A DNA stretch of 42,368 nt from IMG/VR virus record IMGVR_UViG_2737471817_000007, positions 1 to 42,368 of that record. One strand, given 5' to 3'. This DNA is from a virus (Duplodnaviria > Heunggongvirae > Uroviricota > Caudoviricetes). Positions 4,629 to 41,000 of this stretch are shown here, piece by piece (position 1 is the stretch's first letter; each line of letters begins with the position of its first letter). The notes beneath the pieces were generated by a model. It was not told the DNA's origin. It searched no databases and saw nothing but the letters and a program-made list of their open reading frames with translations. Position numbers and translations under genes: made by a program.

Positions 4629-5165
4629 AAACTTCTTATACAGTGTCGATATACCAACATCATAGATGATCGCCACCTTCTGGCGAGGAACGCCTGATGC
4701 AATTAATCGTCCGGCCTGCTCCCATTGTTCTGGTGTAAGTTTGGGGCGACGTCCACCAATTCGTCCCTGTGCGCGAGCTGCTTCCAGTCCAGCTTTTGTT
4801 CGTTCAACAATCAGTTCACGCTCCATTTCAGCCAGGGCACCCATCACATGAAAGAAAAAGCGCCCCATTGGGGTACTGGTATCAATTGAATCCGTCAGAC
4901 TACGAAAGTTGATGCCTCGTTCGCGCAACTCCTCCACCAGCACGACAAGATGCCGCATACTGCGCCCCAGTCGGTCCAGTTTCCAGACCACCAGCGTGTC
5001 ACCTGCCGATAATGTCCTGAGCAGCTTTTTCAGTCCTGGTCTGTCGGACTTTGTACCGCTTATCTTGTCTTCAAAAATCAGCTTACATCCTGCACAGTTC
5101 AGCGCATTACGTTGTAGATCGGTATTCTGGTCATTTGTTGATACACGTACATAGCCAATAAGCAT
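4611..5165 (-). CDS. Serine recombinase / DNA invertase (Gin/Hin/Pin/Cin family)
   Basis: MLIGYVRVSTNDQNTDLQ N-terminus typical of resolvase/invertase catalytic domains; adjacent to oppositely oriented tail-fibre cassettes; the ORF track begins 12 codons earlier at 5201. Confidence 0.8.
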   Translation of the reverse strand: MLIGYVRVSTNDQNTDLQRNALNCAGCKLIFEDKISGTKSDRPGLKKLLRTLSAGDTLVVWKLDRLGRSMRHLVVLVEELRERGINFRSLTDSIDTSTPMGRFFFHVMGALAEMERELIVERTKAGLEAARAQGRIGGRRPKLTPEQWEQAGRLIASGVPRQKVAIIYDVGISTLYKKFPVGDK

Positions 5166-6019: not shown

Positions 6020-6593
6020 CATCCGGCGCTGTGCTGGTATCTGTTGCCGTCACCGCGTCAATGTAATCCAGCACAGCGTTAAGGCGGGTTGTTTCTGCCT
6101 GCGTCAGTTTACGTCCGGCCTGCAATTTCAGTTGAATCAGACTGATGGAAGCCATTGCTGCATCAATCAGTGACTGGCGCTGTGCTTCTGCCGCTTCTAC
6201 TGCGGCACAGTGTTGTGCCTCAGTGTCGGTCACCCATTTCTCACCATCCCATTTATCATATGGCGTTAACGGGGCGATAGTGGTTGTATTTTCTGGATAG
6301 TCGCCTGGTGCTGTGATTTCTTTGGCATCTCCCGTTTCGGTGTTATAGACGATTTCACCGCGATGGTCTGGCACATATTCCCATGAGTTAAAATCTGCAG
6401 AACGGCAGATTGCATAACCAGCTTTGTATGCGCCTGGAGCATCTAAACAGGAACATGCCGGAATACCGACACCCACAGCAAGATATTCAGTTGATGTGAA
6501 AATATATTCCCGTGTTTCACCATCATAGTTATAAACAGTAATATTTCCTGCCTGAGTGGCGATAAATTCGTTATTTAATACGGCGTAATCCAT
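5991..6593 (-). CDS. Tail-fibre assembly protein (Tfa / Mu U-like)
   Basis: 200 aa; C-terminal DTSTAPDVIWPELP motif; directly downstream of the fibre gene. Confidence 0.7.
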   Translation of the reverse strand: MDYAVLNNEFIATQAGNITVYNYDGETREYIFTSTEYLAVGVGIPACSCLDAPGAYKAGYAICRSADFNSWEYVPDHRGEIVYNTETGDAKEITAPGDYPENTTTIAPLTPYDKWDGEKWVTDTEAQHCAAVEAAEAQRQSLIDAAMASISLIQLKLQAGRKLTQAETTRLNAVLDYIDAVTATDTSTAPDVIWPELPEA

Positions 6594-25514: not shown

Positions 25515-25532
25515 ACCTCAGTTGTTAAAAAG

Positions 25533-25557
25533 CCCCGCTATTGCGAGGCTATGATTG
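25533..25557 (-). terminator. Intrinsic terminator after the 25573-25848 membrane-protein gene
   Basis: agcctcgcaatagcggggct hairpin followed by UUUUU on the minus strand. Confidence 0.4.
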
Positions 25558-29105: not shown

Positions 29106-29900
29106 TTACGCCAGTACGCCTATTGCCAGCGCACGATCGATAAAACGAAATATCAGCTCCAGCTGGGAGCCATACTTCTCTTCAAATGCCACGGTATCCG
29201 CATGCAGCTCGTCGTGATGCTTTCTGCACAAAGGCAACACAAAGAGGTCATGCGCTTTTGTACCCATTCCACCCTGACCGTGACCTATCAGGTGGTGGGG
29301 ATCATCAGCAGGCTTTCCACAACATGCACACGGCTGTGTCTTAACCCAGCGCGTGTACTTTTCATTAACCCAGCGGCGACGTTTGGGGCGTAACATAAAA
29401 GACTCCGGCGACTCCGGATCCACTTTCAGCGCCAGCACCTTTTTCGCCTTATCCTGGATGATGCTGGTGGCAGGAACCGAAGGCACAAGGTCACTTTCCC
29501 GGGTGACAGACTGCACAACAGGCTTCGGTAATCTCAGTGCCTTACGGGCTGCACTTTCCGGTAAGGCATCTGCCAGATCATTACGAATCAGCCACCAGCA
29601 CAGTTCCGGCATTGTCACAACGTGACTATCATCAAAACCGAGATCCCGACGCACAACAGACAACACCCAGCGGGCACAGTTATCCGTTGCCATTGATTCC
29701 AGCCGTTCCGTGAACTGATCGCGCAGCTGGTTATCGCAGTGCCAGCACAGACGGATTGCGCCCGGAGCGTGTCGCATTGTGGTCATGTTCTCGCTGTGCC
29801 AGTCGGAATGAGGCCACTGGCAGCCTTTTTCACGAAGTAACCAGCTTTCAAGACATTCCACGCCACCAGCACGACGGATCACTGCCTCATTGCGGAACAC
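29106..29900 (-). CDS. DUF968 / NinG-like phage protein with Cys/His zinc-finger-like motif
   Basis: 264 aa; CACCGKPADDPHHL ... CRKHHDELH motif; nin-region position. Confidence 0.45.
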   Translation of the reverse strand: MFRNEAVIRRAGGVECLESWLLREKGCQWPHSDWHSENMTTMRHAPGAIRLCWHCDNQLRDQFTERLESMATDNCARWVLSVVRRDLGFDDSHVVTMPELCWWLIRNDLADALPESAARKALRLPKPVVQSVTRESDLVPSVPATSIIQDKAKKVLALKVDPESPESFMLRPKRRRWVNEKYTRWVKTQPCACCGKPADDPHHLIGHGQGGMGTKAHDLFVLPLCRKHHDELHADTVAFEEKYGSQLELIFRFIDRALAIGVLA

Positions 29901-34073: not shown

Positions 34074-34633
34074 GCGTTAGTTTCTCCACAGTCACGACAC
34101 GCCACGGCGCCCGGAGCTGCACACTCGCGGGCGTCACTACTTTCTGAAACGCAAAAGATTTTGTAGACCAGAGCTGCATGCTCCTGCAGCTTCGAAATTG
34201 AGAGGTACAGCTCATCGTTAATTGCTGTCTTCTCATGCGGTTCCACTACACCGTCTTCAATTGCTGAACGAATCTGTTTTGAATAACTGCCGATCTGTTC
34301 AATGACTTCCAGCAGGCGTTGGTTGATATCGGCGTTGTCCACATCCTCGACATCAGGAAGAGACACAAAGACGCCATTTGCAGACTGCGCCACAGCGTCA
34401 GCAATGAAGTGAGTTCCACCAGCACGTTGCAAAATCATTGCCCATCCCAGCGGGAAAATCTGATCGCCATCGGCACGAAGGCGGTTAAATAATGCGTGCT
34501 CTGTTACATCCAGCCAGTCAGCAGCTTCAGCGTACCCCCCCGGCAACGCTGCGATAGTTTTTCTGACAGCTTTCACGTACCACTCAGGCTGTTTTTCTAC
34601 TTTCCAGTGATGCTTACCCACGGTTAGCCTCAT
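34070..34633 (-). CDS. CII-like / YdaT-family regulatory protein
   Basis: 187 aa directly downstream of cro in the rightward-operon equivalent. Confidence 0.4.
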
Positions 34634-34664
34634 CGTTCTGTGGTTAAAAATTGAAAGTGTTCTG

Positions 34665-34865
34665 CTAATCTTTCGGATAGATATCCGGTCTTAAGTCAGA
34701 TTTCGTAATTGCACCTGACGTGCATTGCTCAAGTTTTTTAGCCAGCACAAAACTGGCTTTTTTATAGCCATTGAAAACCAGCCGTAAGTAGCCAGGTGTT
34801 GAGCCAACTTTTCCGGCCAACTCGCCCTGCTGTTCTTTGGTTAAAGAGTCCCAATACGCTTTCAT
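34665..34865 (-). CDS. cro: Cro-like repressor (YdaS/Cro HTH family)
   Basis: About 66 aa from MKAYWDSLTKEQQGELAGKVG; divergent from the CI gene across the operator region. Confidence 0.6.
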   Translation of the reverse strand: MKAYWDSLTKEQQGELAGKVGSTPGYLRLVFNGYKKASFVLAKKLEQCTSGAITKSDLRPDIYPKD

Positions 34866-34955
34866 ACAATATGTACCTCCAGTGTACATATTACATGATT
34901 AAAATGAACCTTCAAGATACTTGTACCTTAACGGTACAAGGGTTTTAATTTCGTT
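34866..34955. promoter_or_regulatory. Immunity switch: divergent promoters with palindromic operators
   Basis: atatgtac-N7-gtacatat (about 34869-34891) and cttgtacc-N5-ggtacaag (about 34919-34939). Confidence 0.55.
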
Positions 34956-35630
34956 ATGAAAACAATCCATGACATCCGGCGGTCTAACGCCAGAAAACTG
35001 AGAGATGGTGTTGGCGGGAATTCTTCCTTTGCCACTATGATTGATCGCGAGCCAACCCAGACCAGCAGGTTTATGGGAGATGGTGCTACTAAAAATATCG
35101 GTGACAGCATGGCACGACACATCGAAAAATGTTTCGACCTGCCTGTTGGATGGCTCGATCAAGAACACCAGACAACGAACATCACAAAAAAACCTGATGT
35201 TTCAATCACTAATAAACAAATCACATTAGTCCCTGTCATATCATGGGTACAGGCCGGAGCATGGAAAGAAGTTGGATATTCTGAGGTTGATTTGAGCACA
35301 GCAGAAACGTATCCCTGCCCTGTACCCTGTGGGGAAATGACTTATATCTTGCGGGTGATAGGTGATTCAATGATTGATGAGTACCGCCCGGGAGACATGA
35401 TTTTTGTCGATCCTGAAGTACCAGCCTGCCACGGTGACGACGTTATTGCATTGATGCACGATACAGGTGAAACCACCTTCAAAAGGTTGATAGAAGATGG
35501 GACACAGCGTTATCTCAAAGCGTTAAACCCAAACTGGCCTGAGCCTTACATTAAGATCAACGGTAATTGCTCTATAATTGGAACTGTGATTTTCTCAGGA
35601 AAACCAAGAAGATACAAAATCAAAGCCTAA
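34956..35630 (+). CDS. cI: CI-type prophage repressor (HTH + S24 LexA-like peptidase domain)
   Basis: 224 aa; C-terminal GDSM ... FKRL Ser/Lys dyad region typical of S24 autoproteolytic repressors. Confidence 0.75.
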   Translation: MKTIHDIRRSNARKLRDGVGGNSSFATMIDREPTQTSRFMGDGATKNIGDSMARHIEKCFDLPVGWLDQEHQTTNITKKPDVSITNKQITLVPVISWVQAGAWKEVGYSEVDLSTAETYPCPVPCGEMTYILRVIGDSMIDEYRPGDMIFVDPEVPACHGDDVIALMHDTGETTFKRLIEDGTQRYLKALNPNWPEPYIKINGNCSIIGTVIFSGKPRRYKIKA

Positions 35631-35642
35631 TCAATGTTTATG

Positions 35643-35665
35643 AACCTGCTTCGGCAGGTTTTTTT
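35643..35665 (+). terminator. Intrinsic terminator after the repressor gene
   Basis: cctgc-ttcg-gcagg stem plus T7. Confidence 0.6.
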
Positions 35666-35669
35666 ATAC

Positions 35670-35706
35670 TTGACAATGTACCCATGAGATACATAATGTA
35701 CCCAAG
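35670..35706 (+). promoter_or_regulatory. PL-like early-left promoter with overlapping TGTACCC operator repeats
   Basis: TTGACA, 16-17 bp spacer, cATAATg; tgtaccca repeated across the spacer and downstream. Confidence 0.5.
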
Positions 35707-35786
35707 AGAAACAACGAACAGGCAGGACGCCCACGAAGTAGCCGCCTGGGGCATATAAAGTCTAGGGTGATTCGTTAGCAACAAAA

Positions 35787-35819
35787 AAGCGCCCTACAGG
35801 ACGCTTAGCTCTTTAACAA
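35787..35819 (+). promoter_or_regulatory. Hairpin plus rrn-type boxA (GCTCTTTAACAA): candidate antitermination (nut-like) site
   Basis: 35808-35819 is identical to the ribosomal-operon boxA core; preceded by a short stem-loop as in rrn leaders. Confidence 0.45.
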
Positions 35820-35864
35820 TCTGGTCCCCATCAACAAGTAACTGATAACTTGAGGAGGTGTGAA

Positions 35865-36071
35865 ATGCACAAAACAGAACCCACAATCGTCGCGCCCGGA
35901 TACACAAATGAGGAAATTTACGAGTGGATGGCAAAGAAGCTGGCAGCTATAAACCAGCTTCGTGAAGTGCTGTCTTATCGACAGGAAACAATAGACTCCT
36001 TAAAAAAACTGGATCAGGAAATCACGGTTTTATCACAGGATGTTACTTTAGATATTGTGCAGACAAATTAG
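35865..36071 (+). CDS. Hypothetical first early-left protein (about 68 aa)
   Basis: GAGGAGG Shine-Dalgarno 5 nt before the ATG at 35865; the ORF track starts at 35850. Confidence 0.4.
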   Translation: MHKTEPTIVAPGYTNEEIYEWMAKKLAAINQLREVLSYRQETIDSLKKLDQEITVLSQDVTLDIVQTN

Positions 36072-36477
36072 GATCCCATTCATTTTCGTCAAAATCATCA
36101 AAGTGATGAATTTGTGATCTCCAGTCTCGATAATCTAAAAATTTCTGGGCGGTTACGCTTATTTTATCAAGTGTGAGTTCATCCTGAATTGAAAGAAGAA
36201 GTTCATCAAATTTCATCTCATTAATCTGTTTTGGCATCCAGTGATGCTTCATCAGAATAAGGTGAACCAGAGCCTTTTTCCCATTCAACTGATTATAGGG
36301 AGTGCCGAATTTCTTCCGGTGCTCATGTAAGACAAGGTCCAGAAGAGTAAGTAATGTTGCCCTTGATTCCACTTTGCTTATTTCGACTGATGACACTACC
36401 CCACTGATTTCAATGCCCCGATACTTTCCAACATTTTCACAGTGGGATTTGTACAGCGTGTAGATATTACCGGACAT
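36043..36477 (-). CDS. Low-GC moron protein of unknown function, antisense to the early-left operon
   Basis: 144 aa; AT-rich; own Shine-Dalgarno; direct repeats in its upstream region. Confidence 0.55.
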   Translation of the reverse strand: MSGNIYTLYKSHCENVGKYRGIEISGVVSSVEISKVESRATLLTLLDLVLHEHRKKFGTPYNQLNGKKALVHLILMKHHWMPKQINEMKFDELLLSIQDELTLDKISVTAQKFLDYRDWRSQIHHFDDFDENEWDPNLSAQYLK

Positions 36478-36619
36478 TTCTTTTCCTTTTGCGTTGTTGG
36501 GGATAACCAGATTAACCGAATCCTTGTTGTTGGGGAATAACCAGGTCCACCTCGCCTGATGTGGCTAAAAGCAGGCACATAACAGCTAAGTATTTTTAAC
36601 CAGAGAGAATCCTTAGCGT

Positions 36620-36930
36620 TGTGGTGAATGCGGCTCAGCGCACGCGGGTTAAGGTTGAGGCTGACAGTCGACCTTCTGTGGATACCCACCCGTCTGGTGT
36701 GCAACCTTCGCCAGGCACCGGGAGGCACCCGGCACCACAACTTTATGCTGTGTGTAGTCCTGGAGGTACCAGTTTGTACCCTTGCTTCCGGCTGGTACCG
36801 TCCTTTTTACAAAACAGAGAAGAGCATCACCGGACGACGGGCTCATAACCCAATCCATCCGGGCGGCTGCCACCGCAGGTGTTCTTCTCTGTTTTGTGGA
36901 GAAACTAATCGGCCTTGCAGGGTCGATATG
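36620..36930. other. GC-rich untranslated region with nested inverted repeats and operator-like TGTACC motifs
   Basis: IR acaaaacagagaagag (36809-36824) / ttcttctctgttttgt (36883-36898); ggtaccag ... ctggtacc (36765-36799); ctggaggtacc resembles operator O1. Confidence 0.45.
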
Positions 36931-36945
36931 ATGAGGAGCAGCAAA

Positions 36946-37308
36946 ATGGCTAGCGAACGCAGTACTGATGTGCAGGCATTTATCGGGGAGCTGGACGGCG
37001 GCGTATTTGAAACCAAAATCGGCGCAGTTCTCAGTGAAGTCGCTTCCGGTGTGATGAACACGAAAACCAAAGGTAAGGTCTCACTCAACCTGGAAATCGA
37101 ACCATTTGATGAGAACCGTGTGAAAATCAAACACAAACTCTCATATGTTCGCCCGACTAACCGCGGGAAAATTTCCGAAGAAGACACCACCGAAACGCCG
37201 ATGTATGTCAATCGCGGTGGTCGCCTGACTATTCTGCAGGAAGACCAGGGACAGTTACTGACTCTTGCCGGTGAACCTGACGGAAAACTCCGCGCAGCAG
37301 GTCGTTAA
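36946..37308 (+). CDS. Hypothetical early protein, same length as CPS-53 YfdP (120 aa)
   Basis: AGGAG Shine-Dalgarno before the ATG at 36946; the upstream part of track ORF 36628-37308 is Arg/Cys-rich read-through of the GC-rich region. Confidence 0.5.
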   Translation: MASERSTDVQAFIGELDGGVFETKIGAVLSEVASGVMNTKTKGKVSLNLEIEPFDENRVKIKHKLSYVRPTNRGKISEEDTTETPMYVNRGGRLTILQEDQGQLLTLAGEPDGKLRAAGR

Positions 37309-37373
37309 TATCGTTTTTAATTAACTGATTATTTATCTCATCACTGAATATCTTTATATAGTGAGGACTTATT

Positions 37374-38198
37374 ATGTCTCAGAACTTAGACGCAACCGCA
37401 ATTAATCAAATCCATGCCCTTATTTCTGCTCAGGGTGTTAATGAAATTATCAGTAAGATTGGTGCCGATGCTGTGGCATTGCCTGAGAATTTCCGCATTC
37501 ATGATCTGGAAAAATTTAATTTAAATCGCTTCCGTTTCCGTGGTGCGCTTTCCACTGCCAGCATCGATGACTTTACCCGTTATTCTAAAGATCTTGCAGA
37601 TGAAGGCACCCGCTGCTTTATCGATGCTGATAATATGCGTGCCGTCAGTGTGCTTAACCTGGGTACTATTGATGAACCAGGTCACGCAGATAACACCGCC
37701 ACACTCAAACTGAAAAAGACAGCACCGTTCTCTGCTCTGTTGTCTGTTAACGGCGAGCGTAACTCCCAGAAGTCACTGGCAGAATGGATTGAAGACTGGG
37801 CCGACTATCTTGTGGGCTTTGATGCTAATGGTGACGCTATTCAGGCAACAAAAGCGGCTGCGGCTGTCCGTAAAATCACGATTGAAGCAAACCAGACCGC
37901 TGATTTTGAAGATAATGACTTCAGCGGCAAACGCTCCCTGATGGAGTCTGTCGAAGCGAAGACCAAAGACATTATGCCAGTGGCATTTGAATTTAAATGC
38001 GTTCCGTTTGAAGGTCTGAAAGAACGTCCGTTTAAATTACGCCTCAGTATTATCACTGGCGATCGTCCTGTACTGGTTCTGCGCATTATTCAGCTGGAGG
38101 CGGTGCAGGAAGAAATGGCTAACGAATTTCGTGATCTGCTTGTTGAGAAATTCAAGGACAGCAAAGTAGAAACCTTTATTGGTACTTTCACCGCCTGA
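37374..38198 (+). CDS. Hypothetical early protein, same length as CPS-53 YfdQ (274 aa)
   Basis: Position and length in a YfdP-Q-R-S-T-like series; similarity asserted from memory, not verified. Confidence 0.5.
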
Positions 38199-38325
38199 TT
38201 TCATTACTGCAAATGCCCTTGCGGGGGCATTTATGGAAACGTAATTTACTCAATAATCGCCGGATGGTGAGGGATTCTTTTTACCAGAATTCAGCGCGGT
38301 GCAGCGCATATACGTGGAGAACAAA

Positions 38326-38862
38326 ATGTCATTTATTAAAACTTTTTCCGGGAAGCATTTTTATTATGACAGGATAAATAAAGACGACATCGATATTAAC
38401 GATATCGCGGTTTCCCTTTCAAATATCTGTCGCTTTGCCGGTCATCTTTCGCACTTCTACAGCGTCGCCCAACATGCGGTTCTTTGCAGCCAGTTGGTGC
38501 CGCAGGAATTTGCTTTTGAAGCGTTAATGCATGATGCAACAGAAGCGTATTGCCAGGACATTCCCGCACCACTGAAACGCCTTCTTCCTGACTATAAACA
38601 AATGGAAGAAAAAATAGACGCCGTAATCCGTGAGAAATACGGGTTACCCCCAGTTATGAGTACGCCCGTGAAATATGCCGATCTCATCATGCTGGCAACC
38701 GAACGCCGCGATCTCGGGCTTGATGATGGCTCTTTCTGGCCTGTACTGGAAGGTATCCCGGCAACAGAGATGTTCAACGTGATTCCACTGGCACCGGGCC
38801 ATGCCTACGGGATGTTTATGGAACGCTTTAACGAGTTATCGGAGTTACGCAAATGCGCATGA
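38326..38862 (+). CDS. HD-domain phosphohydrolase (YfdR-like 5'-deoxynucleotidase)
   Basis: H ... HD ... D metal-binding pattern (AQHAVLCS, MHDATEAY); 178 aa from MSFIKTF. Confidence 0.6.
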   Translation: MSFIKTFSGKHFYYDRINKDDIDINDIAVSLSNICRFAGHLSHFYSVAQHAVLCSQLVPQEFAFEALMHDATEAYCQDIPAPLKRLLPDYKQMEEKIDAVIREKYGLPPVMSTPVKYADLIMLATERRDLGLDDGSFWPVLEGIPATEMFNVIPLAPGHAYGMFMERFNELSELRKCA

Positions 38863-39215
38863 ATGTTTTCGAAATGGAAGGGTTTCTTCGTGGGAGATGT
38901 GTACCGCGAGATCTGAAAGTAAATGAAACAGATGCTGAATACCTGGTGCGTAAATTCGATGCGCTTGAAGCTAAATGTGCAGCACAGGAAAACAAAGTAA
39001 TACCAGTGTCAACTGAACTGCCACCAGCAAATGAAAGTGTTTTGTTATTCGATGCTAACGGAGAAGGCTGGCTAATTGGCTGGCGTTCTCTCTGGTACAC
39101 CTGGGGACAAAAAGAAACCGGAGAATGGCAGTGGACATTTCAGGTCGGGGACCTTGAAAACGTCAATATCACTCACTGGGCAGTAATGCCAAAAGCACCG
39201 GAGGCTGGAGCATAA
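38853..39215 (+). CDS. Hypothetical early protein, same length as CPS-53 YfdS (120 aa)
   Basis: Operon position and length. Confidence 0.45.
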   Translation: MRMNVFEMEGFLRGRCVPRDLKVNETDAEYLVRKFDALEAKCAAQENKVIPVSTELPPANESVLLFDANGEGWLIGWRSLWYTWGQKETGEWQWTFQVGDLENVNITHWAVMPKAPEAGA

Positions 39216-39520
39216 TGACCACTTTTACCGACAAAGAACTGATTAAAGAAATTAAAGAGCGTATCAGCAGCCTTGACGTGCGAGACGATATTGAGCGCCG
39301 TGCTTATGAAATCGCACTCCTATCTCTGGAAGTAGAACCAGATGAACGCGAAACTTATGAATTATTCATGGAAAAGCGTTTCGGTGACTTAGTAGATCGT
39401 CGGAGAGCAAAAAACGGCGATAACGAATACATGGCATGGGATATGACTCTCGGTTGGATCGTCTGGCAGCAACGAGCTGGTATCCATTTTTCAACAATGT
39501 CACAGCAAGAGGTGAAATAA
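39215..39520 (+). CDS. Hypothetical early protein, same length as CPS-53 YfdT (101 aa)
   Basis: Operon position and length. Confidence 0.45.
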   Translation: MTTFTDKELIKEIKERISSLDVRDDIERRAYEIALLSLEVEPDERETYELFMEKRFGDLVDRRRAKNGDNEYMAWDMTLGWIVWQQRAGIHFSTMSQQEVK

Positions 39521-39870
39521 TGGAGCCATACAGCCTCACACTCGATGAGGCCTGTCATTTTCTCAAGATATCCAGACCGACTGCCATTAACTGGATACGC
39601 ACAGGGCGTCTTCAGGCAACACGCAAAGATCCCACTAAGAATAAATCTCCTTACCTCACAACACGACAAGCCTGCATTGCGGCTCTTCAGTCTCCGCTGC
39701 ATACTGTCCAGGTGAGCGCGGGTGATGGCATAACAGAGGAAAGAAAATGTCACTCTTCCGCAGAGGTGAAATATGGTACGCCAGTTTCACATTGCCGAAC
39801 GGTAAAAGATTTAAACAGTCTCTTGGAACAAAGGACAAAAGGCAGGCGACAGAACTCCATGACAAGCTAA
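39520..39870 (+). CDS. xis: Excisionase (AlpA/MerR-like HTH)
   Basis: [34 protein letters not shown] immediately upstream of and overlapping int. Confidence 0.55.
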
Positions 39871-40910
39871 AGGCTGAAGCATGGCGGGTCAGCAAACTTG
39901 GTGAAATACCTGATATAACGTTCGAGGAAGCGTGTGTCAGGTGGCTTGAAGAGAAAGCACATAAAAAATCACTGGACGATGACAAAAGCCGGATCGGATT
40001 CTGGCTTCAACATTTCGCAGGAATGCAACTAAGAGACATTACTGAATCAAAAATTTATTCAGCAATGCAGAAAATGACGAACCGGCGTCATGAGGAAAAC
40101 TGGAAACTCAGGGCAGAAGCATGCAGAAAAAAAGGGAAACCTGTTCCAGAATACACGCCAAAACCAGCGTCCGTTGCAACGAAGGCTACGCATCTTTCAT
40201 TTATAAAGGCCCTACTAAGAGCCGCAGAGCGTGAATGGAAAATGCTGGATAAGGCACCAATTATTAAAGTGCCTCAACCAAAGAATAAACGGATCCGCTG
40301 GCTGGAGCCCCATGAAGCACAAAGGCTGATTGATGAATGTCCGGAGCCATTAAAGTCTGTTGTTGAATTTGCACTGGCAACAGGCTTAAGACGCTCGAAC
40401 ATCATCAACCTTGAATGGCAACAAATAGATATGCAGCGCCGGGTGGCATGGATAAACCCGGAAGAGAGTAAATCAAACCGCGCAATTGGCGTTGCGCTGA
40501 ATGATACTGCATGTCGCGTTTTGAAAAAACAAATCGGGAATCATCACCGTTGGGTATTTGTGTACAAGGAAAGCTGTACCAAACCAGACGGAACGAAAGC
40601 GCCAACAGTAAGGAAGATGCGGTATGACGCAAACACAGCCTGGAAAGCGGCGCTGAGACGGGCTGGTATTGATGATTTCAGATTTCACGACTTGAGACAC
40701 ACCTGGGCAAGTTGGCTGGTTCAAGCCGGAGTCCCGTTGTCAGTGTTACAGGAAATGGGAGGCTGGGAGTCTATCGAAATGGTTCGTCGATATGCTCACC
40801 TTGCACCTAATCACCTTACCGAACACGCACGGCAAATAGACTCGATCCTGAACCCATCGGTCCCAAATTCGTCCCAGTCAAAAAATAAGGAAGGTACTAA
40901 TGATGTGTAA
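39747..40910 (+). CDS. int: Tyrosine integrase
   Basis: 387 aa; C-terminal HDLRHT ... VRRYAHL catalytic region; ends 14 bp from the tRNA. Confidence 0.85.
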
Positions 40911-40969
40911 CTTATTGATTTAAATGGTGCCGATAATAGGAGTCGAACCTACGACCTTCGCATTACGAA
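40903..40969. repeat. attR: phage/tRNA junction copy of the attachment repeat
   Basis: Matches 104-170; lies inside the tRNA 3' half. Confidence 0.75.
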
Positions 40970-41000
40970 TGCGCTGCTCTACCAACTGAGCTATATCGGC
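40925..41000 (-). tRNA. thrW: tRNA-Thr (anticodon CGU)
   Basis: Reverse complement reads GCCGATATAGCTCAGTTGGTAGAGCAGCGCATTCGTAATGCGAAGGTCGTAGGTTCGACTCCTATTATCGGCACCA: cloverleaf with CGT anticodon and CCA end. Confidence 0.85.

Follow-up and report, generated by a model that had tools for sequence, protein, structure and literature searches.

How RNA polymerase (RNAP) starting at the early-left promoter (PL) of a lambdoid prophage reaches the distal genes of the operon, when the phage has no N protein, is the question raised by the locus analyzed here. The stretch of DNA examined, referred to as the window, is the whole 42,368-nucleotide (nt) IMG/VR record IMGVR_UViG_2737471817_000007. It is essentially Shigella phage SfIV, with 99.8% identity across positions 34600-36600, and is classed here as an N-less lambdoid prophage of the SfIV type (Shigella and E. 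coli). Few prophages are commoner in E. coli and Shigella than those of the SfIV, SfV, SfII, e14 and KplE1 types, and we know of no description of processivity along their early-left operon, xis and int included. At 35808-35819 the window carries a 12-mer identical to the boxA core of ribosomal RNA (rrn) operons. Judged by sequence comparison, this 12-mer is probably a functional rrn-type boxA on the PL transcript, an N-independent site for NusB and NusE that would shield PL transcription from Rho. The original prediction had proposed such a boxA, preceded by a boxB-like hairpin and possibly acting without N. The rrn-type boxA, its sense orientation to PL and the lack of N were borne out, whereas the adjacent hairpin could not be upheld as a boxB.

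The boxA on the early-left transcript

The immunity region, PL and boxA are arranged as follows.

34956-35630, plus strand: cI-type repressor gene, 224 amino acids (aa), S24 peptidase (Pfam Peptidase_S24, E=1.5e-26; annotated in SfIV and SfV)
35642-35668, plus strand: intrinsic terminator of the cI transcript (terminator scan, 8-bp stem then TTTTTTT; a terminator is annotated in SfV too)
35670-35697, plus strand: PL-like promoter, TTGACA-16 nt-CATAAT (11 of 12 consensus sigma70 matches, the top of the region)
35808-35819, plus strand (PL transcript): rrn-type boxA GCTCTTTAACAA (RNA GCUCUUUAACAA), putative NusB-NusE binding site (exact match, unique in the window)
35820-35824, plus strand: extension UCUGG (UCUGGAUAUCC in most relatives), kept across unrelated right flanks and forming with ACAA a spacer-like segment

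The promoter at 35670-35697 was taken as the PL equivalent because it points away from cI and toward homologues of yfdP, yfdQ, yfdR, yfdS and yfdT, xis and int; transcription would start near 35704. The repressor is of the immunity type found in SfV and in ymfK of the E. coli K-12 element e14, ymfK being equal in length and position. Leftward, on the minus strand, lie cro, a CII-like gene and the replication genes. About 105 nt separate boxA, which is sense to PL, from this near-consensus site upstream of it; the site itself follows the cI-like gene and its terminator. This agrees with the predicted location downstream of the early-left promoter. No plus-strand terminator was found between PL and boxA by the terminator scan, and no further plus-strand sigma70-like site was predicted before int in the scan of 36400 to 41000.

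The 12-mer was confirmed at its stated position as a single exact copy in the 42 kb, and none of 100 dinucleotide-preserving shuffles yielded one. When the window was compared with the boxA consensus published for gamma-proteobacteria, GYTCTTTAANA (PMC5725501), only the 12-mer matched perfectly, and it carries the consensus feature (UGCUCUUUA / GYTCTTTAANA) with the extra U included. All 12 nt are identical to the boxA of the rrn leader, and the rrn 16S-23S spacer bears the same sense-oriented GCTCTTTAA(A/C)AATCTGGAT, whose E. coli form reads TGCTCTTTAAAAATCTGGATCAAGC and is present in 7 copies per genome, between tRNA-Glu and 23S. The conserved block runs on past the core as ACAA-TCTGG(ATATCC), and the conserved ACAAUCUGG is common to the rrn spacer and the leaders of phage T7. 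NusA binds the rrn and nut spacers next to boxA (PMC2724277), and the ACAA plus UCUGG segment is a possible NusA contact. In the predicted folds, boxA was unpaired in both centroid structures and in one minimum free energy structure; the other (ensemble frequency 0.012) pairs its first two bases. Chance occurrence was ruled out by the shuffles and by the motif's return, at an equivalent position, in many prophage contexts unrelated to one another.

On the minus strand, which carries the early-right (PR) transcript, no match to the boxA consensus was found near cro and cII, and the one-mismatch hits are all distant and have changes in the conserved core. A near-boxA at 25522-25533 on this PR and late-operon strand (GCTTTTTAACAA / GCTTTTTAACA at 25523) has one mismatch, the core change C4T, and mutation at that position inactivates the suhB boxA. 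A permissive Rfam scan of 35600-37000 gave no match at boxA or the leader.

The absence of an N-like arginine-rich protein, also part of the original prediction, was supported by three lines of evidence. A scan for arginine-rich windows in all open reading frames (ORFs) of at least 40 aa returned spurious alternative-frame ORFs only, Pfam and PHROG scans of the ORFs of the PL and PR operons found no N family, and SfIV, SfII and SfV are described as lacking cII, cIII and N (PMC3851460). Furthermore, in most contexts an N gene would not fit between cI and the convergent gene downstream. The boxA would thus act without a phage N protein, as an absence of evidence only. A minus-strand ORF at 29223-29582 is annotated 'antitermination Q' in SfIV, yet its Pfam match is DUF968 (E=2e-55) and no named Q family was matched; the late-antiterminator label comes from annotation alone.

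A terminator and a boxA back to back

The hairpin immediately upstream of boxA belongs to the following feature.

35780-35806, minus strand: intrinsic terminator for convergent minus-strand transcription, stem 35806-35787 (AAGCGUCC UGUA GGGCGCUU) then UUUUUUGUU (top hit of the terminator scan)

The short hairpin that had been noticed before boxA is present at 35787-35806, but its reading as a boxB, in the 'boxB-then-boxA' order of rrn leaders, was ruled out by its strand asymmetry. The predicted energy was -11.5 kcal/mol on the minus strand versus -7.5 kcal/mol on the plus strand. The minus-strand stem has 8 continuous base pairs (bp), including a conserved G.U, whereas on the plus strand a C.A mismatch interrupts the stem, and the U-run is on the minus strand only, always so across variants. 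The minus strand was more stable in 40 of 41 distinct hairpin variants (mean -11.6 versus -7.3 kcal/mol), and in a Klebsiella phage variant the sole difference is in the loop, which becomes a C(UUCG)G tetraloop when read on the minus strand. On the plus strand, this hairpin was not called by the terminator scan. The minus-strand preference and U-run therefore point to an intrinsic terminator of the convergent transcript, not an rrn-like boxB. Together, the predicted terminator and boxA form a compact back-to-back unit at the left edge of a slot for cargo genes.

Pattern scans of IMG/VR gave 125 instances in 47 distinct contexts (±60 nt) and 24 right-flank groups. The unit, consisting of terminator, boxA and TCTGG, was located 170-250 nt 3' of a cI-type gene in all contexts (359 nt in the longest, L109), with at least seven repressor types upstream, and was sense to the cI-type gene and PL in every context surveyed. 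Nearly always a minus-strand ORF of 130-170 aa came next, its stop codon falling within 10-40 nt. A scan of one genome per species detected the unit in 12 species of at least nine enterobacterial genera (Escherichia, Shigella, Citrobacter, Kosakonia, Buttiauxella, Mangrovibacter, Izhakiella, Sodalis and Symbiopectobacterium, plus another Enterobacteriaceae genome), and the layout was unchanged even where the leader was unrelated. The arrangement of PL, leader and boxA was found at a query coverage of at least 80% in 381 of 5,426 complete E. coli genomes. A piece of about 45 nt, hairpin and boxA alone, is shared by PhiR29-type coliphages and Klebsiella phages of unrelated immunity type.

A search anchored on the hairpin, in which boxA was not required, retrieved 115 contexts, 64 of them in the boxA class. 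Directly after the hairpin, the 9-nt core GCTCTTTAA was exact in 63 contexts and differed at one position in 1, and no context differed at two positions; the other contexts contained unrelated terminators and at least three core mismatches. Within the boxA class, the spacer base was A, C, T or absent, position 10 was C or A, and the terminator loop took more than 20 forms. Such a fixed core (exact in 63 of 64 contexts) next to a variable spacer base and loop appears to be under purifying selection. The boxA also stands at the same position without a terminator in L021 and L103. In the family of L217, L237 and L252, boxA lies between a hairpin that is not a terminator and the convergent gene, a translated plus-strand ORF preceding the hairpin, and in L264 and L278 boxA follows a hairpin resembling stem I of the HK022 put site. 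The persistence of boxA without this terminator argues against simple hitch-hiking on it.

These observations bear on an explanation in which the motif has no Nus function and was kept as the edge of a terminator cassette, either as a U-rich tract giving weak bidirectionality or as exchange homology, its likeness to boxA being a coincidence. The motif is indeed mostly fused to the minus-strand terminator, the unit is located at a mosaic boundary, and GCUCUUUAA is U-rich and lies immediately 3' of the hairpin on the plus strand. U-tracts, however, tolerate variation that this core does not display among its varying neighbours, and the motif is retained where the terminator is missing or replaced. 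The extended motif also occurs in rrn spacers and T7-group leaders without such a terminator, and the plus-strand hairpin is weak, mismatched and uncalled by the scan. A cassette edge without Nus function was thus considered unlikely.

It is far less plausible still that the minus strand is the functional one, with the 3' end of the cargo mRNA (…GGAUAUCCAGAUUGUUAAAGAGC plus the terminator) serving as an anti-boxA RNA that would pair with the host rrn boxA or the phage PL leader. This 3' untranslated region (UTR) is perfectly complementary to 12 nt of the boxA in the rrn leader, and for the boxA region of the rrn spacer the complementarity is 18 of 19 nt; it also carries a strong terminator hairpin, as do small RNAs derived from 3' UTRs. 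Nevertheless, the motif is sense-oriented and terminator-less in T7-group leaders and several lambdoid lineages, and free variation was seen at the base adjoining the core, which would extend pairing with rrn.

The leader of the early-left transcript

Between PL and the terminator-boxA unit lies a second conserved element.

35714-35775, plus strand: conserved PL-leader module, consisting of a 5' block GAACAGGCAGGACGCCCACGAAGTAGCCGCC, hairpin L1 (~35743-35769, loop GGCAUAUAAAGU) and a GAUGAUUCG-like segment (alignment, RNAalifold)

RNAalifold assigned L1 a stem of 5 bp, three of which covary, and a conserved loop of 12 nt. In the alignment 93% of the cells were paired, and the covariation was 0.474 versus 0.122 in shuffles (0/500), with slid controls at or below 0.12. 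In the window, L1 folds on the plus strand only (-10.5 kcal/mol versus -3.6 kcal/mol on the minus strand). The module was found after at least 10 promoter/operator types, no second copy of the leader block exists in the window, and no earlier description of it was found in the literature. A survey anchored on the leader, in which boxA was not required, gave 108 distinct contexts, 36 with boxA and 72 without. In E. coli K-12, the region is lost from CPS-53, and e14 has the same PL and leader hairpin with no boxA (L281, about 6110-6175, minus strand). The occurrence of the leader with or without boxA therefore marks it as a separate element and not as half of an obligatory boxB-boxA pair.

This separability bears on the proposal that boxA is one half of a nut-like site needing a phage-encoded or unidentified factor, with L1 in the role of boxB and contacted by RNAP itself or by an N analogue of non-canonical type. 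L1 is a real RNA hairpin by the folding and covariation above, about 40 nt separate it from boxA downstream in an rrn-like order, and other phages with this immunity region have a nutL-N module where the window has the leader module (similarity to Stx2c and cdtI phages stops at ~35713). On the other hand, many phages have L1 and no boxA, among them e14 and SfV, as do two thirds of the surveyed contexts (72/108), and boxA occurs after quite different, L1-less leaders (L004, L015, L383, L384 and L387), so that the two are separable. Nor was any arginine-rich or N-family protein found. A nut-like site of this kind was judged to be quite unlikely.

The put RNA of HK022 is a cis-acting, factor-independent antiterminator of an N-less lambdoid phage and uses neither boxA nor Nus factors. 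HK022 and the window share the problem of processivity in an early operon without N, and a site just past PL. However, put consists of two long stem-loops in about 70 nt, whereas the window leader has one short covarying 5-bp stem. BLAST found no similarity between the leader and the HK022 putL / PL region, and by these two comparisons the leader is not a put RNA. Possible put/boxA hybrids are the lambdoid contigs L264 (1195-1260) and L278 (near 4735-4800 on the minus strand). In both, the hairpin after PL closely resembles put stem I (GUCGAACGGCGCGACUUUAAACCAUGCGUCGG, an A-U being swapped to U-A compared with HK022), and boxA comes directly after it in place of put stem II.

A more speculative extension, to which we give a low but not negligible probability, is that the PL leader itself (the 30-nt 5' block plus L1) is a new cis-acting element that modifies RNAP or recruits a host factor. 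The boxA would be an add-on for convergent cargo cassettes, and the two would jointly provide N-free antitermination by RNA plus host factors. If so, the leader, which is present in over 100 contexts among prophages whether or not boxA is there, would be put-like in role and unrelated to put in sequence, and the combined system would characterize a very large group of prophages in enterobacteria (SfV, SfIV, e14 and KplE1 type).

The cargo slot, its untranslated RNA and related systems

Downstream of boxA, the PL transcript crosses the following features.

35865-36071, plus strand: 68-aa ORF, phrog_1744 (full-length PHROG match, E=1.5e-33; strong Shine-Dalgarno sequence GAGGAGG at 35853-35859; homologues in L028 and L252)
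36043-36477, minus strand: convergent 144-aa cargo ('moron') gene, phrog_5286 (PHROG, E=1.5e-90)
36360-36437, plus strand: C-rich, G-poor stretch, candidate Rho-loading (rut) region by composition scan (25 C and 8 G in 78 nt, C/G = 3.1)
36588-36810, plus strand: STnc100-like structured RNA (Rfam RF02076, 38.4 bits against a gathering score of 47, E=1.9e-6, full model length)

The window represents the commonest type, in which boxA and the convergent 144-aa gene are separated by the inserted 68-aa ORF, the first translated gene on the PL transcript. The two genes are convergent, with 3' ends overlapping by 29 nt, and PL transcripts traverse the 144-aa gene in antisense; the cargo-gene transcript would end at the terminator at 35806-35780. 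Beyond the 68-aa gene, no credible sense ORF was found from 36072 to 36627, or to 36945 if the ATG annotated in SfV is used. A 226-aa reading from 36628, which overlies the STnc100-like match, is annotated in SfIV, is frame-broken in L059 and L085, and is unused in the SfV annotation; the yfdP homologue at 36946-37308 is the first well-supported sense ORF past the 68-aa gene. With the 226-aa ORF doubtful and yfdP starting at 36946, the untranslated PL RNA therefore extends over at least 550 nt and probably about 870 nt. It includes the STnc100-like region, which is non-coding, GC-rich (58-59%), located upstream of the yfdP-like gene and conserved in SfV, PhiR29, e14-like and many other prophages.

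Rho classically acts on untranslated and antisense RNA. The likely need for a boxA, a convergent cargo gene and a long untranslated stretch directly downstream, had been overlooked in the original prediction. In the leader-anchored survey, a convergent ORF of at least 100 aa ended within 350 nt in 35 of 36 contexts with boxA versus 9 of 72 without (Fisher 8e-19, the contexts not being phylogenetically independent). These comparative data fit an N-independent, Nus-factor antitermination of the early-left operon.

Because of what is established for the boxA elements of rrn operons and CRISPR arrays, we infer Nus-factor binding and antitermination at this site. On induction, RNAP from PL would transcribe the conserved leader and then boxA, to which NusB and NusE (S10) would bind; with NusA, NusG and probably SuhB they would render RNAP resistant to Rho, as on rRNA operons, with neither phage N nor a boxB required. 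The modified RNAP would then cross the antisense side of the cargo gene and the structured untranslated region, where the RNA would otherwise be sensitive to Rho, and read through to the distal early-left genes, namely the yfdP-T homologues, xis and int. The hairpin upstream of boxA would halt the cargo transcript before it enters PL and cI. In the rrn system, boxA with its spacer and a few upstream bases suffices against Rho-dependent terminators without N or boxB (PMC2724277), rrn-type boxA binds NusB-NusE more tightly than lambda boxA does (PMC3177189), and boxA shields untranslated CRISPR arrays from Rho (PMC7665894).

Nus factors could instead act here as at suhB: by binding near the ribosome-binding site they would repress translation of the 68-aa ORF, promote Rho polarity and damp early-left expression. 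The suhB 5'-UTR boxA has the same perfect consensus match, lies in a 5' leader less than 50 nt from its start codon, and leads to repression and Rho termination (PMC5725501). In the window, 45 nt separate the end of boxA from the ATG at 35865, which is inside the 50-nt limit by which such regulation has been predicted (PMC5725501), and boxA is able to enhance Rho termination. Yet a plus-strand ORF follows boxA in only about 3 of 24 right-flank groups, most homologous contexts having no downstream sense ORF; elsewhere boxA abuts the antisense side of a convergent gene or, in L252, follows the homologous ORF. A suhB-like role was accordingly regarded as very unlikely.

Several points weigh against protection of the PL transcript from Rho by boxA. 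Complexes of the rrn type are poor at reading through intrinsic terminators, and the terminator scan detected a weak plus-strand terminator-like site at 36146-36161. The leader module is also present in e14 and SfV, relatives with the same immunity region that manage without boxA, SfV being a viable phage; SfV shares PL and the leader with the window up to ~35776, then diverges, and has neither the hairpin nor boxA. The 9 surveyed contexts with a convergent gene and no boxA indicate that boxA is not obligatory. In most contexts boxA is physically linked to the minus-strand terminator, and its association with convergent genes is partly due to that linked terminator alone. The boxA can also promote Rho termination, as in suhB (PMC5725501) and hisG. 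Finally, recent spread of one cassette edge among phylogenetically non-independent contexts could inflate the apparent conservation.

The rrn antitermination complex contains NusA, NusB, NusE, NusG, SuhB and S4 and is independent of N. Like the rrn elements, the window boxA lies upstream of a long untranslated RNA, without N and with a hairpin upstream of it. Unlike them, it stands in a phage early operon under repressor control, its adjacent hairpin is a terminator of the other strand, no boxC-like GU-rich element is present, the RNA to be protected is antisense or untranslated mRNA instead of rRNA, and Nus binding is putative. Compared with the nut sites of lambda, P22 and phage 21, boxA is likewise in the early-left leader at the nutL position, and it is of the consensus type, as in phage 21; unlike in those phages, there is no N gene and no nutR-like boxA in the PR operon. 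No conserved boxB was found 3' of boxA, where only a context-specific, weak, AU-rich 5-bp stem is predicted (35835-35852, centroid -3.4 kcal/mol) and where the sequence beyond TCTGG is wholly different between contexts. A lambda-type nut site was ruled out by the lack of a conserved boxB, N and nutR. The CRISPR-array boxA (PMC7665894) likewise stands alone, at the start of a long untranslated transcript and with no phage factor; it was demonstrated experimentally and in another genomic setting, whereas the window boxA is known from sequence comparison.

The extended motif was also found in the early leaders of T7, T3 and phiYeO3-12, and in about 300 T7-group records. In T7 (L379, 813-823) and phiYeO3-12 (L284, 915-934), CGCTCTTTAACAATCTGG is sense-oriented between the host promoters A1-A3 and gene 0.3. 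In these T7-group phages, an exact boxA plus TCTGG also lies upstream of the R0.3 RNase III site and is unannotated in the records examined. The T7 group resembles the window in having the same extended motif, sense to early promoters of host RNAP, and no N; unlike it, these are lytic podoviruses with no convergent cargo gene and no back-to-back terminator. In the literature searched, no description of a boxA in SfV/SfIV-type phages or T7 leaders, and no functional study of it in T7, was found. Antitermination by Nus factors and boxA is already known, and what appears to be new is its prophage early-operon setting and the back-to-back terminator and boxA at the edge of a cargo slot. If the proposed role is correct, a stand-alone boxA would extend Nus antitermination from rRNA operons and CRISPR arrays to prophage induction and excision, and would explain how phages tolerate backward-facing cargo genes within an operon.

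The slot itself, 35787-36600 in the window, is variable in content. Pfam and PHROG scans placed at least six unrelated PHROG families in it among relatives, all of unknown function, and no SieB or defence label was applied. Both edges are conserved around at least six unrelated minus-strand genes of 130-170 aa in L003, L004, L015, L019, L023, L029, L036, L059, L109 and L237. Several slot proteins have predicted membrane-like N-termini, and the slot resembles a defence or exclusion hotspot. Its left edge is the minus-strand terminator, boxA and TCTGGATATCC, a combination that would serve as a simple sequence marker of the left edge of a cargo hotspot that may hold defence or exclusion genes. 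The right edge, at 36480-36560, contains two direct repeats, TTGTTGGGGA(A)TAACCAG, and is probably the cargo promoter region. A diverged homologous pair of the 68-aa and 144-aa genes is present in L028, and in L252 the 68-aa homologue lies upstream of boxA and the cargo gene is a different one; the two genes may form a module with antisense coupling. A minus-strand tRNA gene at 40928-41000 (Rfam, 71.8 bits), the sole Rfam match at gathering thresholds, lies just past int and is probably the attachment-site tRNA at the prophage end.

Outside this arrangement, several exact boxA copies each were present in L258, a 104-kb contig, and in L215, L249 and L268, contigs of ~44 kb. Some of these copies lie a few bases past sigma70-like promoters, for example ttgaca..17..tataat followed by GCTCTTTAAAAA, and these phages may carry an rrn-type boxA at many of their early promoters.

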